Shown here: positions 1,001-5,452 of the stretch, in pieces
How positions within the stretch are numbered: the first letter of the stretch is position 1
Layout: every line of letters starts with the position of its first letter
DNA from: a virus
Taxonomy: Duplodnaviria; Heunggongvirae; Uroviricota; Caudoviricetes
Reading direction: 5' to 3' (one strand)
Virus record (IMG/VR): IMGVR_UViG_2778261005_000009
Length of the DNA stretch: 5,452 nucleotides
Made by a program: the position numbers and the translations under genes
The notes under the pieces: generated by a model
The model's input: only the letters and a program-made list of their open reading frames with translations
Database searches by the model: none
What the model was told of the DNA's origin: nothing

Positions 1001-1033
1001 ATCTGAGAAACGATTTTGTCGGAGGAAATATTA

Positions 1034-1750
1034 ATGGAAACCGTATTTGACGCACTGAAAGCACTGAAAAAAGCCTCTTCACAGGTAGTGGCATCGCGCC
1101 TTGGAATCAGCCGCGAAGATGCTGTCAACGAACTGTGGAAACTGAAGCGCCGTGGTGAAGCGGATAACAAGGGGTCGATGTGGTGGCTGACTCAGACTGG
1201 TGAAAGTGAACCAGTGTCACCGGTACCGAAAGTGACAGCGCAAATGCTGACTGAGGCGATTGAACATCATGGCCCACAAACGGCGGATGAGCTGGCACTG
1301 ATGTTCGGGATTACCTCCCGCCGGGCGAATTCATCACTGGCCATGGCAATCAGCAAAGGGCGTCTGATTCGCGTGAATCAGGGCGGTAAATTTCGGTACT
1401 GCATACCGGGCGCTGATTTACCGGCAGAGCCGAAAGCCGCATCCATAACGGAAACGGATGGTAAAGCCTTTCCTCAGCCAGCAGGTGTTGCGTTACCAGT
1501 CGGGGAAGCGGAAACACAGGAAGAAATAAAAACGGAAAGTGTGGCGGTCACAGTGCAGTCACAGCCGTCGTTCACCAGAAAGCATCCGGATGGTCTGATT
1601 TTACCATCGCTGCATGTGGCTAACCGCGAGCTGCGCCGGGCAAAAGGTCAGGTTCAGAAGTGGGAGCGAGTCTGCGCCGCGCTGCGGGAGCTGAACAAGT
1701 GCCGGGATATTCTCCGGGATATTACCGCCACCAGAGAACAGCAGCGGTGA
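1034..1750 (+). CDS. DUF1627-like prophage protein with two winged-helix-like repeats
   Basis: ATG 1034 preceded by GGAGG (1021-1025) at 8-nt spacing; stop TGA 1748-1750. The track's TTG start at 1016 lies upstream of the SD and is unlikely. Two internally similar segments ([36 protein letters not shown] and [40 protein letters not shown]) look like winged-helix units. The DUF1627 name is from memory of lambdoid prophage proteins. Confidence 0.75.
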
Positions 1751-2064
1751 GTGGGTGGAAGACGTGGTGCCGGGCGGAAATCATGATACTCCGGCAGTGT
1801 GCGGGAACGATGAAGGTAAAAAGCGTTGGCGCACTTATCGGACGAACTGAAGCGGCAGTGAGAACGAAGGCACGGGAGCTGGGCATCAGCATGATGTTAC
1901 GTGGTGATTTTCACCCGTCGGCAAAATATTCTCAGCGTGATATTGAGCTGGCGCGGCAACTGCATCAGAGAGGCATGCAAAGAAGGGAAATTGCCAGAAA
2001 ATTAGGCATGCCGCTGCGCATAGTGAATAACTACGTTTATTTCGACAGGAGGGTGTCTGCGTGA
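1747..2064 (+). CDS. Small DNA-binding protein with GcrA-like N-terminal motif and NinH/Fis-like C-terminal HTH
   Basis: Frame 1 ORF ending TGA 2062-2064. Proposed start GTG 1747 overlaps the upstream stop (GTGA); alternatives are ATG 1783 and ATG 1810, all with weak [16 protein letters not shown]...[21 protein letters not shown] resembles the GcrA N-terminal HTH pattern, and [20 protein letters not shown] resembles the lambda NinH HTH (QTEVARRLKCSRGTVRKYV). Confidence 0.6.
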
Positions 2065-2288
2065 AAATCCTGTATCAGGATTACGGCCCGGTGGGGCAGG
2101 TGGTTATCAGCAGTACTGTAATGGAGTTTCGGAAGCATAACCGTGTGGTGGATGCTGTGCTGTTAACCTGTCCGGGGATATCGGCGAGTCGTGCAGGTGT
2201 GTTTATTATGAAGACGAAATTATATGGCAGTAAGGCGTGGATAAAGAAGGCGTATCGTGTAGCGTTGCAGGAGGTTAACAGTGAGTGA
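2061..2288 (+). CDS. Hypothetical phage protein (75 aa)
   Basis: GTG 2061 overlaps the upstream stop (GTGA) and is preceded by AGGAGG (2047-2052) at 8-nt spacing; stop TGA 2286-2288. No recognisable family. Confidence 0.6.
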   Translation: MKILYQDYGPVGQVVISSTVMEFRKHNRVVDAVLLTCPGISASRAGVFIMKTKLYGSKAWIKKAYRVALQEVNSE

Positions 2289-2592
2289 AATTAAAGAAAT
2301 GCCGGTAGTTCGTGACGGATATGGCTACTGGACACATCCTGAATATGAAAAATTCTGTGATGGTCGGGAATATATTTCAACGGAAGAGTTTAACGCCTGG
2401 ATGGAGGAAAATAATCTTCAATACGTCCTCTGCTTCAGAGATGAAGGATGTGCTGACCTTGATGCGTGTGATGCTGATATTTCTGCATGGGAACCGGAAC
2501 GACCAGAGGGCGATGGCTGGTTTATTGGTTCCATTCATGATACGGAAGATGGCCCGGTTTGTGTCTGGTTGCGAAATAAGGCTGAAGCATAA
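2281..2592 (+). CDS. Hypothetical acidic Cys-containing phage protein (103 aa)
   Basis: GTG 2281 preceded by AGGAGG (2268-2273) at 7-nt spacing and overlapping the upstream stop by 8 nt; alternative ATG 2299. Stop TAA 2590-2592. Acidic, with a CxDxDACDAD stretch. The overlapping frames 2312..2617(+) and 2377..2613(-) are rejected. Confidence 0.65.
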   Translation: MSEIKEMPVVRDGYGYWTHPEYEKFCDGREYISTEEFNAWMEENNLQYVLCFRDEGCADLDACDADISAWEPERPEGDGWFIGSIHDTEDGPVCVWLRNKAEA

Positions 2593-3612: not shown

Positions 3613-3630
3613 TGCTGCGGGTGCTTGAGG
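3613..3630 (+). promoter_or_regulatory. 5' element of hok mRNA complementary to its 3' end (tac/fbi-like long-range pairing, 5' partner)
   Basis: tgctgcgggtgcttgagg (3613-3630) pairs antiparallel with cctcaacgcacccgcg (3993-4008): 6 bp, a one-nucleotide bulge (C3999), then 10 bp including one G-U. Confidence 0.45.
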
Positions 3631-3664
3631 CTATCTGCCTCGGGCATGAACACCAACGGCAGAT

Positions 3665-3739
3665 AGAGAAAAGCCCCAGTTAACATTACGCGTCCTGCAA
3701 GACGCCTAACATTAATCTGAGGCTCAATCTATGAACGGC
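3665..3739 (-). ncRNA. Putative Sok-like antisense RNA (type I antitoxin), about 75 nt
   Basis: Minus-strand sigma70-like promoter (below) would start transcription near + coordinate 3739. The transcript is antisense to the upstream in-frame ATG (3731) and its SD (GAGG 3719-3722). It ends in a terminator-like structure on the minus strand: outer stem ccucag/cugggg (3717-3722 with 3674-3679, one G-U), inner stem gcguc/gacgc (3690-3694 with 3701-3705), then U-tract cuuuucucu (+ 3665-3673). Ends are approximate. Confidence 0.4.
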
Positions 3740-3745
3740 AAATCT

Positions 3746-3774
3746 AGGTTAGCCTCTTACGTGCCGAAAGGCAA
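3746..3774 (-). promoter_or_regulatory. Candidate promoter of the Sok-like antisense RNA
   Basis: On the minus strand: -35 TTGCCT (+ coordinates 3774..3769), 17-nt spacer, -10 TAACCT (3751..3746). The -35 overlaps the hok SD region on the opposite strand. Confidence 0.35.
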
Positions 3775-3787
3775 GGAGAAGCAGGCT

Positions 3788-3943
3788 ATGAAGCAGCAAA
3801 AGGCGATGTTAATCGCCCTGATCGTCATCTGTTTAACCGTCATAGTGACGGCACTGGTAACGAGGAAAGACCTCTGCGAGGTGCGAATCCGAACCGGTCA
3901 GACGGAGGTCGCTGTCTTCGTAGACTACGAATCTGAGAAGTAA
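3788..3943 (+). CDS. hok: Hok/Gef-family type I toxin (51 aa membrane peptide)
   Basis: ATG 3788 preceded by AGGAG (3774-3778) at 9-nt spacing; stop TAA 3941-3943. Product MKQQKAMLIALIVICLTVIVTALVTRKDLCEVRIRTGQTEVAVFVDYESEK aligns along its length with plasmid R1 Hok ([52 protein letters not shown]) and is very close to chromosomal HokD/RelF as recalled. The track ORF 3731..3943 is an in-frame upstream extension (ATG 3731), possibly a mok-like leader reading frame. Confidence 0.9.
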   Translation: MKQQKAMLIALIVICLTVIVTALVTRKDLCEVRIRTGQTEVAVFVDYESEK

Positions 3944-4528: not shown

Positions 4529-4801
4529 ATGACACAACACATAAAATCCCACAATTCTGAAGCCGACCCGGAAATTAAGCAGGGGAGGCGTTTTCGTGCG
4601 CCTCAGTATGGCTGGTTTCACTATCTGTTCTGTACGATCGATGAGGCAGATATGCTTCAAGAGGCGTATCTGCGTCGCGGTGTCCGTGTGGAGCGGAGTC
4701 TGAACGCTGATCGTCTGACCTGGACCGTTTCTGTATATCTTCCTGTTCGTGCACATCTGCCACGGACACATGCCTGCTACCGTCAGCGCGTCTGGAGGTA
4801 A
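4529..4801 (+). CDS. Small hypothetical protein (90 aa), possibly Rem-like; alternatively the shifted 5' part of the DUF968-like gene
   Basis: ATG 4529 preceded by GGAGA (4519-4523) at 5-nt spacing; stop TAA 4799-4801. The N-terminal about 60 residues look protein-like; the last about 25 (R/H/P-rich) look like out-of-frame translation of the overlapping DUF968-like frame. Position between a hok locus and a DUF968 gene parallels the rem-ydfU arrangement in the K-12 Qin prophage, as recalled. Confidence 0.45.
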   Translation: MTQHIKSHNSEADPEIKQGRRFRAPQYGWFHYLFCTIDEADMLQEAYLRRGVRVERSLNADRLTWTVSVYLPVRAHLPRTHACYRQRVWR

Positions 4802-5452
4802 TGTGCGGGTATTACTTCGACCTGTTCTGGTTCCGGAACTCGGGCTGGTGGTCCTTAAGCCCGGTCGTGAATCATTGCCAGTTTTTCATCGCGGCAGGGT
4901 GCTGGTGGAGCCGGAACCGAAAAACATGCGGGCGCTGCCATCTGGAGCGGTTCCTGCTGTTCGCCAGCCGCTGGCGGAAGATAAATCACTGCTGCCATTT
5001 TTCAGCGATGAGCGGGTGATTCGTGCAGCTGGCGGCGCTGGTGCACTGTCTGACTGGTTATTACGTCACGTGAAATCCTGCCAGTGGCCACACGGCGATT
5101 ATCATCACAGCGAAACCGTTATTCACAGTTACGGTGCTGGCGCAATGGTGTTGTGCTGGCACTGCGACAACCAGCTGCGCGACCAGACCTCCGAATCACT
5201 TGAGCAACTTACTCAACAAAATCTGACAGCCTGGATGATTGACGTCATACGCCATGTAATGAATGGCACGCAGGAGCGGGAATTATCGCTGGCTGAATTA
5301 TCCTGGTGGGCAGTCTGCAATCAGGTGGTGGACGCATTACCTGAGGCAGTATCGCGTCGCTCTCTGGGATTACCGGCGGAAAAAATCCGCTCCGTATACC
5401 GTGAAAGCGACATCATACCGGGAGAACAGACCGCCACCAGCATACTGAAGCA
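4770..5452 (+). CDS. DUF968-like protein with HNH-like Cys/His motif, 3'-truncated by window end
   Basis: Frame 0 is open from the stop at 4716-4718 to the end of the window and is absent from the ORF track because it has no stop. First ATG is 4770 (weak SD); alternative GTG 4749. Translation ..VKSCQWPHGDYHHSETVIHSYGAGAMVLCWHCDNQLRD.. contains a C..H..HH..CxxC arrangement reminiscent of HNH zinc-binding motifs. The DUF968 assignment is from memory of prophage YdfU-like proteins. Confidence 0.65.
   Translation, partial: MPATVSASGGNVRVLLRPVLVPELGLVVLKPGRESLPVFHRGRVLVEPEPKNMRALPSGAVPAVRQPLAEDKSLLPFFSDERVIRAAGGAGALSDWLLRHVKSCQWPHGDYHHSETVIHSYGAGAMVLCWHCDNQLRDQTSESLEQLTQQNLTAWMIDVIRHVMNGTQERELSLAELSWWAVCNQVVDALPEAVSRRSLGLPAEKIRSVYRESDIIPGEQTATSILK

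Follow-up and report, generated by a model that had tools for sequence, protein, structure and literature searches.

The window, by which we mean the whole stretch of 5,452 nucleotides that was analysed, matches, at 100% identity, a Rac-like lambdoid prophage located in the chromosomes of Escherichia coli O157:H7 and O121. This exact DNA is already known, having been sequenced and annotated in hundreds of E. coli genomes, and of 5426 complete genomes, 459 contain at least 80% of the four-gene block considered here. This block is part of the rightward early operon, flanked by the O/P-like replication genes on one side and by a region with DUF4014, DUF551 and hok on the other. Directly 5' of it are found an O-like gene, whose product carries a DnaT domain, and a P-like gene. 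As annotated, the order of the prophage genes is cro, ydaT, DnaT-like, P, DUF1627, DNA-binding protein, two hypotheticals, DUF4014, DUF551, hok and ygiW, with RusA and DUF1133 further downstream.

The four open reading frames, referred to here as g1 to g4, are all located on the plus strand. The first of these, g1 (1034..1750), runs from ATG 1034 to the TGA at 1748-1750, encodes 238 amino acids and is served by a GGAGG Shine-Dalgarno sequence (1021..1025) positioned 8 nt before the ATG. The stop codon of g1 overlaps the start of g2 in a GTGA (1747..1750), and no Shine-Dalgarno sequence is found upstream of this start (..cagcagcgGTGA). The second gene (1747..2064) extends from GTG 1747 to the TGA at 2062-2064 and encodes 105 amino acids. 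An AGGAGG (2047..2052), contained within the 3' end of g2, lies at an 8-nt spacing from g3 (2061..2288; GTG 2061, TGA 2286-2288; 75 amino acids), which shares a further GTGA (2061..2064) with the end of g2. A second AGGAGG (2269..2274), inside the 3' end of g3, is separated by a 6-nt spacer from g4 (2281..2592; GTG 2281, TAA 2590-2592; 103 amino acids), and here the overlap encompasses 8 nt (GTGAGTGA; 2281..2288). The first-pass annotation of this DNA had reported the three stop/start overlaps and the AGGAGG sites before the third and fourth genes, and all of the coordinates are confirmed.

Sequence comparison supports all four starts, including GTG 1747, which differs from the start given in RefSeq, where g2 begins at ATG 1783 (WP_000603384.1, 93 aa). 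The 105-aa form has also been deposited, for instance as BAI25898.1. The relatives of g2 in Salmonella, Pantoea, Enterobacter and other organisms are 100-105 amino acids long, and a W-x-RAEI motif is conserved upstream of ATG 1783. Among 19 distinct junction sequences of the E. coli type, moreover, 15 have CTG at the position of this ATG, which makes the overlapping GTG the nearest start. On these comparative grounds RefSeq has probably placed the start of WP_000603384.1 12 codons too far downstream. E. coli-type relatives retain the GTGA at the g1/g2 junction, and a second allele of g1 forms it anew within other surrounding sequence (..GATGTGAAGTGAGATGG). The start of g3 is supported by an N-terminal MKI.Y.D.G pattern that is conserved among its relatives. 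For g4, the conserved PV.RD motif is preceded in relatives by around 7 residues, and where g4 has its alternative methionine they have L, I or V.

All four open reading frames are real protein-coding genes, as is apparent from their family matches, from full-length homologues with conserved N-termini, from third-position variation and from AF2 models; in both g2 and g3 the third-position variation is in excess and internal stops are absent. A scan of the sequence detected no promoter-like or terminator-like site within 1034-2592, which makes the co-expression that had been proposed plausible from a single transcript, and one such transcript probably covers all four genes. A weak terminator-like hairpin occurs at 975-991, at the end of P, but falls within the number expected by chance. 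An Rfam scan identified no noncoding RNA in the block, its sole match being the sok RNA at 3619-3793, outside the block. Literature searches with the RefSeq protein accessions returned nothing on the proteins of the block.

The product of g1, which is represented in RefSeq by WP_000450627.1 with identical coordinates, is a YdaW-type protein. It matches the Pfam family DUF1627 (PF07789) with an E-value of 7.9e-79 and a score of 263.3 bits against a cut-off of 28.1, such that residues 76-230 align with the whole of the model (positions 1-155 of 155). It also matches phrog_630 at 6e-119 and is 72% identical to YdaW of phage Rac (MN652886). A weak match to phrog_142, annotated as a 'Ren-like exclusion protein', has an E-value of 4e-4 and is far below these two. 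The protein has a pI of 9.3, a linker rich in proline and glutamate and a strongly conserved C-terminal helix, and its alleles are mosaic, with a variable N-terminus and a conserved C-terminus. The literature searched mentions DUF1627 only where it marks synteny near the Pas sRNAs. The first-pass annotation had described a protein with two winged helices, and two regions, at about residues 2-58 and 64-136, show matches to winged-helix families, all of them below threshold: DUF5817_CT and HTH_Crp_2 within residues 2-45, and AlkZ-like, AbiEi_4, TrmB, MarR_2 and FeoC within residues 64-136. No sequence relatives of g1 were found in the PDB. When the family profile was compared with the PDB, a weak match was obtained to 2d1h (E 0.003, residues 68-134), together with weak matches of residues 2-58 to DtxR-type and Z-alpha winged-helix proteins (E 0.1-0.3).

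The product of g2 is a small and very basic protein (pI 11.1) that belongs with phrog_323 (1.2e-25) and harbors a helix-turn-helix in its C-terminal half. Across 18 members of the family this C-terminal motif is matched by Sigma70_r4_2 in 15 (best 1.7e-6), by HTH_23 in 11 and by HTH_7 in 9, and in the g2 of the window the helix-turn-helix family matches, at residues 60-98, fall slightly under the gathering cut-offs. Comparison of the family profile with the PDB returned 2lvs and otherwise nothing but repeat or designed proteins, each aligned with the C-terminal motif. Of the double helix-turn-helix described earlier, the C-terminal one alone is supported. The N-terminal half has a helix-turn-helix-like pattern by eye and a weak match to phrog_14101 (residues 4-43, E 0.002), but its profile gave no meaningful match to the PDB, and no internal duplication was detected in the protein (hhalign probability of the N-half against the C-half, 1.5%). 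The suggestion that this protein is NinH-like is not supported: Phage_NinH does not match g2 at E<=1, nor any of the 18 family members at E<=0.01. Taken together, their sequences indicate that g1 and g2 probably encode DNA-binding proteins that act as early regulators or modulators of DNA transactions.

The final two proteins have no sequence relatives in the PDB that could be found. The product of g3 is basic (pI 9.8), and has a confident AF2 model; its predicted beta-beta-alpha-beta-beta-alpha fold would be an alpha/beta sandwich resembling ACT and BMC domains. Its structural neighbours are the ACT domain and the circularly permuted BMC shell-protein fold, at 13-14% sequence identity, and no Pfam ACT or BMC match was obtained. 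The canonical ACT domain has the order beta-alpha-beta-beta-alpha-beta, with respect to which the strand order of g3 is permuted. This fold is very common and carries no functional implication. A word-indexed search suggested that g3 might be an ORFan restricted to E. coli, an idea that was discarded once an exhaustive HMMER scan had found 42 representative clusters. The product of g4, in contrast, is acidic (pI 4.1), with abundant conserved tryptophan, histidine and cysteine residues. It matches neither a Pfam family nor a PDB fold, and a confident AF2 model depicts a small alpha/beta domain of an ordinary kind, plus an acidic loop that is disordered. Both g3 and g4 represent real, independently mobile accessory families without Pfam coverage.

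With regard to translation, the three junctions are not equivalent. Ribosomes would initiate on g1 from its own GGAGG. The start of g2 has no Shine-Dalgarno sequence and its GTG overlaps the g1 stop, so that g2 is most likely made by reinitiation, whereby ribosomes terminating on g1 would restart on the overlapping GTG and the output of g2 would be tied to that of g1. For g3 and g4 independent initiation is possible because a strong AGGAGG is embedded in each preceding gene, and the upstream ribosome might do no more than hold the site open. The sequence features of a coupled pair, namely an overlap, the lack of a downstream Shine-Dalgarno sequence and a conserved geometry, are all found at g1/g2; g2/g3 and g3/g4 also overlap but have strong Shine-Dalgarno sequences as well. 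In this respect g1/g2 mirrors the termination-reinitiation systems that operate at ATGA or GTGA in trpB-trpA and many phage operons, with its 4-nt overlap and no downstream Shine-Dalgarno sequence. The 4-nt overlap is shared by g2/g3. The genes g3 and g4, with strong Shine-Dalgarno sequences of their own, would not be expected to depend strictly on upstream translation. The sole real dependency within the block is thus likely to be that of g2 translation on g1, and the g2 start would, if it has been read correctly, constitute a clean natural example of obligate reinitiation.

The first-pass annotation had treated the four genes as one coupled set, expressed in a fixed ratio and possibly acting as a cassette. 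Comparison of around 330 related loci does not sustain this, since all four families are found separated from one another. Following g2 there may be g3, a DUF4406 gene or other genes, mostly at -4, and g4 may be preceded by g3, DUF4406, two other open reading frames or g2 itself; downstream of g2, both g3 and g4 are gained and lost independently. The locus samples are the best 80 matches per search, and are redundant and skewed to close relatives; among the best 80 loci selected through g4, g2 is missing from 77, g3 from all 80 and g1 from 79. A diverged g3 is also found upstream of xis/int without g1, g2 or g4. The four families therefore lack the co-occurrence expected of a conserved multi-gene module. 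Relatives of g2 and g4 are neighbours in loci of Erwinia, Pantoea and Pluralibacter, and phage D6 has both at a distance of about 2 kb, which hints at a loose association that the reading as independent cassettes does not explain; an association of g2 with g4 is, however, not borne out by the 77 of the best 80 g4-selected loci in which g2 is absent.

The overlaps themselves are likewise unexceptional. In the annotated prophage region, 5 of 18 same-strand junctions overlap as annotated, a count that rises to 6 of 18 when g2 is taken to start at GTG 1747. Among 44 distinct related architectures, 118 of the 166 called junctions downstream of g2 overlap, whatever the partner gene, although this fraction of about 71% is an upper estimate, as the ORF caller prefers upstream starts. 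A 4-nt overlap accounts for 67 of the 118, and the gene after g2 is joined to it at -4 in 38 of the 44 architectures regardless of its identity. The individual junctions are conserved, and hence real, and by these sequence comparisons three successive overlaps are not unusual here. As the families occur apart and the overlaps do not depend on which gene is the partner, the four genes do not make up a conserved module. We consider it likely that the block is instead an ordinary mosaic accessory region of the early operon of a Rac-like prophage, with overlaps that reflect the usual packing and no obligate four-gene unit. The overlaps are probably also the seams at which gene cassettes are swapped between phages. 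Runs of overlapping small genes are normal for lambdoid early operons, so that their presence is a structural observation of little weight, and tight coupling of this kind is not to be equated with functional partnership, which calls for caution over guilt by association in phage accessory regions.

A narrower proposal pairs g1 with g2 as a dedicated DNA-binding module of two proteins, in which, for example, the C-terminal helix of g1 would recruit g2 and the GTGA would fix their ratio, with g3 and g4 as passengers. When g2 was used to select loci, g1 immediately preceded it in all of the best 80 E. coli-type viral loci, which suggests a partnership in this lineage. The coupling junction is, moreover, both conserved and rebuilt in the second allele, g2 lacks its own Shine-Dalgarno sequence, and the part of g1 that adjoins g2 is its most conserved, while the alleles of the N-terminal winged-helix region vary. 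Against this, other genera have g2 without g1, and with its own Shine-Dalgarno sequence, in 7 of 8 loci, and of 74 loci with Rac-type g1 alleles, which share the conserved C-terminus, 69 carry a LygF-type gene after g1 instead of g2. We regard such a module as a tentative possibility. That the two genes are instead fused by programmed -1 frameshifting is improbable in the extreme. The g2 frame, which is -1 relative to g1, is open from 1660 and so over about the last 90 nt of g1, and the length of this upstream opening varies in relatives, but a stretch of 30 open codons is unremarkable in DNA of 55% GC. Inspection of 1660-1750 revealed no slippery heptamer, the RNA structure at the junction is not unusual (z -0.49), and in other genera the g2 homologues stand alone as proteins of about 102 amino acids and have their own Shine-Dalgarno sequences; on these grounds the frameshift fusion is rejected.

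The remaining proposals concern function. A pairing of g3 and g4 as a toxin and antitoxin, or as an inhibitor and its target, is evoked by the opposite charges of a basic 75-aa and an acidic 103-aa protein (pI 9.8 and 4.1), by their small size and by an 8-nt overlap and strong Shine-Dalgarno sequences reminiscent of type II systems. It is very improbable, being largely refuted by synteny: the families are mostly apart in E. coli loci, as in the g4-selected set above, diverged g3 loci lack g4, and matches to toxin-antitoxin families are absent from Pfam, NCBIfam and PADLOC. The block, or part of it, might alternatively serve anti-defence or host takeover, with g1 countering a retron-type toxin and g4 acting as a protein inhibitor or DNA mimic. 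An early-operon position suits anti-defence genes, and g4 is very acidic, widespread in prophages and of no known fold. Acidity alone is no evidence of DNA mimicry, though, and the AF2 model of g4 is that of an ordinary domain. The first-pass annotation had also raised a defence or anti-defence cassette, for which neither PADLOC (best E-values 0.02-0.04) nor NCBIfam or Pfam provides a match; the PADLOC result is weak counter-evidence, as PADLOC covers defence systems and not anti-defence proteins. In the available text of a preprint, ydaW of K-12 is among the prophage-gene 'blockers' of the retron-Sen2 toxin RcaT recovered in a genome-wide screen (bioRxiv 10.1101/2020.06.22.160242). The allele in that screen is the K-12 ydaW rather than the present g1, and the same text contains no mechanistic follow-up. 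Overall, we judge an anti-defence role unlikely, and the composite in which at least one early gene, chiefly the acidic g4 or the YdaW-type g1, is a counter-defence or host-modulating factor and g2 is the dedicated DNA-binding partner of g1, somewhat more unlikely still.

The block has counterparts in known systems. The early-right operon of Rac (ydaS/ydaT/ydaU/ydaV/ydaW) and the Rac-like prophages of O157 and O121 share the order cro-like, ydaT, DnaT-domain O-like, P-like and DUF1627/YdaW. Downstream of YdaW, Rac itself has LygF and further small open reading frames, and the window has g2, g3 and g4; the replication genes differ too, being a DnaT-like/lambda-P-like pair in the window and YdaU with a DnaC-like YdaV in Rac. 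The ren/nin region of lambda, between P and Q, consists of dense, small, dispensable and overlapping open reading frames that are mosaic among lambdoid phages. The block shares its position, between replication genes and RusA/Q-like genes, but no Nin family, NinH included, matches g1 to g4. This agrees with the earlier remark that the proteins do not otherwise resemble those of the lambda nin region, and the profile HMM searches that had been proposed as a check placed none of the four in a nin family (NinB, NinE, NinF, NinG and the other Nin families of Pfam and PHROG). As for g4, its family is common across Enterobacterales prophages and has no PDB fold match, and for these reasons it would be worth including in screens for anti-defence or host takeover.

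The window derives from a Rac-like lambdoid prophage, and the four consecutive plus-strand genes g1-g4 form part of its early-right operon, directly after the replication genes. The 1.7-kb block around them matches, at 100% identity, prophages in the chromosomes of E. coli O157:H7, O121 and related strains; of the 5426 complete E. coli genomes, 459 have a place covering at least 80% of the block. The RefSeq annotation of NZ_CP028110 gives a rightward order of a Cro/CI-type regulator, a YdaT-family protein, a DnaT-domain (O-like) replication protein and replication protein P, followed by a DUF1627 protein (g1), a 'DNA-binding protein' (g2) and two hypothetical proteins (g3 and g4), and then by DUF4014, DUF551, Hok/Gef, a YgiW-family protein, a hypothetical protein, DUF968, RusA and DUF1133; the other arm of this prophage carries DicB and an exonuclease. 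In lambda, the position after the replication genes is held by ren and the nin genes. The g1-g4 stretch is an ordinary mosaic accessory region of a lambdoid prophage, already sequenced and annotated. In NZ_CP089270 and three other O157 genomes, an insertion of the IS3-family element IS1203 cuts the block into two pieces.

All four ORFs are real genes. The g1 product matches Pfam DUF1627 with 263 bits, and those of g2, g3 and g4 match PHROG families 323, 1001 and 1372, respectively. Among related loci, 14 of the 22 variable sites in g3 fall at codon position 3 and internal stops are absent; the same positional bias is seen in g1 and g2. AlphaFold2 models of g3 and g4 are confident (pLDDT 92 and 81), and searches of NCBIfam and PADLOC returned no match for any of the four proteins.

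The g1 protein (238 aa, pI 9.3) is a YdaW homologue. Its description as a two-winged-helix protein finds some backing in winged-helix family and structure matches at residues 2-58 and 64-136, but all of these are sub-threshold. A Pro/Glu-rich linker and then a strongly conserved C-terminal helix follow, and g1 alleles are mosaic: they vary in their N-terminal parts and keep the C-terminus. For g2 (105 aa, pI 11.1), which the first-pass annotation had called a double-HTH, NinH-like protein, the C-terminal HTH is well supported, Sigma70_r4_2, HTH_23 and HTH_7 matching it in 9-15 of 18 family members. The N-terminal half looks HTH-like by eye but has no PDB match, and comparison with the C-terminal half revealed no similarity, so that the double-HTH label is only half borne out. 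No NinH match was found. A word-indexed search suggested that g3 was an ORFan confined to E. coli, a view overturned by an exhaustive HMMER scan that recovered relatives in 42 representative clusters, of about 74 aa and with identity down to 32%. The protein database, when clustered at 90% identity, groups g1 with g2, and g3 with relatives of g4, which is probably an artefact arising from gene calls that are fused or overlap; this clustering explains the few g3 matches in the word-indexed search. The family of the g4 protein (103 aa, pI 4.1) comprises at least 228 clusters, spread over prophages of Enterobacterales, and Trp, His, Cys and Gly are invariant at many of its positions. A Pfam search assigned g4 to no family, and its BFVD matches are uncharacterised phage proteins only.

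The coordinates of the ORFs and their three overlaps, as first read, proved exact when the sequence was re-checked. The g1 gene runs from ATG 1034 to TGA 1750 with GGAGG at 1021-1025. The GTGA at 1747-1750 holds both the g1 stop and the GTG start of g2 (1747-2064), and no Shine-Dalgarno (SD) sequence lies in the 20 nt upstream. A second GTGA contains the start of g3 (2061-2288; AGGAGG at 2047-2052), and g4 (2281-2592; AGGAGG at 2269-2274) opens at GTG 2281, 8 nt before the g3 stop. RefSeq uses the same starts for g1, g3 and g4 but places g2 at ATG 1783, a choice under which the first overlap would vanish. This PGAP form, WP_000603384.1, has 93 aa, whereas the 105-aa form beginning at GTG 1747 is found in some depositor annotations, such as BAI25898.1. 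Comparison with homologues favours the longer form: those from Salmonella, Pantoea, Enterobacter, Franconibacter and others measure 100-105 aa and keep a W-x-RAEI-x-I-x-x-QC motif starting nine codons before ATG 1783. Moreover, 15 of the 19 distinct junction sequences of E. coli type have CTG in place of that ATG, leaving the overlapping GTG as the nearest usable start there. A second g1 allele, ending ..SREDVK*, rebuilds the GTGA overlap from different sequence, and for g2 of other genera an ATG or GTG, usually with a recognisable SD before it, stands 1-3 codons downstream from where GTG 1747 aligns. From these homologue and junction comparisons GTG 1747 is probably the g2 start and the common annotation 12 codons too short; for g2 the gene layout observed here is more accurate than that in RefSeq. 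The start of g3 is supported by the N-terminus MKI.Y.D.G kept in its relatives, and that of g4 by the roughly seven residues that precede a conserved PV.RD motif in its relatives, in which the alternative Met aligns with Leu, Ile or Val.

Such tight coupling had been taken to imply one four-gene set expressed in fixed ratio, a view not supported by the mapping of all four families on about 330 related loci fetched via g2, g3, g4 and Rac-type g1. In g2-selected E. coli-type prophages g1 lies directly upstream in every case. Downstream of g2 stands g3 at some loci, a DUF4406 gene at others and, in other genera, one of several unrelated ORFs; the downstream junction of g2 is a 4-nt overlap in 38 of 44 distinct architectures, irrespective of the next gene. 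At these loci g4 follows g3, DUF4406 or two other small ORFs, follows g2 directly in Pluralibacter, and lies upstream of g2 in Erwinia and Pantoea; Ead/Ea22-like proteins, a zinc-ribbon protein and DNA methyltransferases also act as fillers. Diverged g3 homologues (55-61% identity) in other phages lie upstream of xis/int with g1, g2 and g4 absent nearby. Among 80 loci selected via diverged g4, 77 are without g2, 80 without g3 and 79 without g1. Outside E. coli, g2 is without g1 upstream in seven of eight other genera, and 69 of 74 usable loci with the Rac YdaW allele are without g2, with a LygF-type gene in its place. Every one of the families thus occurs without the others, and the quartet is a lineage-specific juxtaposition. 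The replacement by a LygF-type gene suggests alternative DNA-binding partners downstream of DUF1627. In phage Rac MN652886 (L165, 2741-3965) and loci L166-L245, the YdaW allele is followed by this gene of about 143 aa, whose product by eye resembles a winged helix joined to a Cys-rich motif. Relatives of g2 and g4 adjoin, in either order, in prophages of Erwinia, Pantoea and Pluralibacter (L003, L004, L008), and in the P1-like phage D6 (MF356679, 77455-79991) some 2 kb separates them; even so, g2 is missing from most g4 loci (77 of 80).

Overlapping junctions are the rule in this prophage region. Of the 166 junctions called in the 44 architectures, 118 overlap, the overlap being 4 nt in 67 cases; the figure of 118 is an upper estimate since the simple ORF caller used favours upstream starts. 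Within the window, the O-like (DnaT-domain) gene and P share an 8-nt start/stop overlap, ATGACTGA, at 539-546, and further tight junctions occur between DUF4014 and DUF551 (1-nt gap) and at 4799-4803. Because the mechanical ORF for P reaches far upstream, to 338, the sequence by itself leaves the P start ambiguous. What the tight coupling shows here is how phages generally pack their genes and swap cassettes at gene boundaries; it is no evidence for shared function.

No promoter-like or terminator-like site was found inside the block, and g1-g4 are probably carried on the early rightward transcript. Translation of g1 would initiate from its own SD. As g2 has no SD and starts inside the g1 stop, it is most likely made by ribosomes that terminate on g1 and then reinitiate, tying its output to that of g1, as judged from the junction and its conservation. 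With their strong SDs, g3 and g4 probably initiate largely independently. A frameshift fusion of g1 and g2 was discarded, both slippery site and junction structure being absent. In related locus L052 (position 1141, equivalent to window 1747-1750), GTGA has become GTTA, with loss of both the g1 stop and the g2 start codon; g1 there is longer, at 273 aa counted from the first ATG of the ORF, compared with 238-253 aa in relatives. This variant provides a natural test case for the coupling junction.

With regard to function, DNA binding is predicted for the products of g1 and g2, and those of g3 and g4 are classed as accessory. That g1 and g2 form a dedicated, though not obligate, pair within E. 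coli prophages is plausible. An anti-defence cassette is a possible reading of low probability: a genome-wide screen (bioRxiv 10.1101/2020.06.22.160242), the sole experimental lead on function, counted K-12 ydaW among the prophage blockers of the retron-Sen2 toxin RcaT, and g4 is acidic, widespread and without known fold. A toxin-antitoxin-like pairing of g3 with g4 is rejected on synteny. The remaining value of the block is modest, and lies in the corrected g2 start, a clean reinitiation junction, and g3 and g4 as uncharacterised families open to screening.

Further downstream, a hok/mok/sok type I toxin-antitoxin locus occupies 3619-3943, in which sok, scored by Rfam at 105.6 bits, spans 3619-3793 and overlaps the mok/hok ORF (3731-3943). 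A 7-bp GAAA-tetraloop hairpin at 2697-2714 lies between AGGAGG (2692-2697) and the ATG (2720) of the DUF4014 gene, with a fold z-score of -2.1; it could draw the SD nearer the start codon or stabilise the RNA. Over the 52 nt at 2649-2700, otherwise unrelated Stx phages have unannotated intergenic DNA that matches with 94-96% identity.
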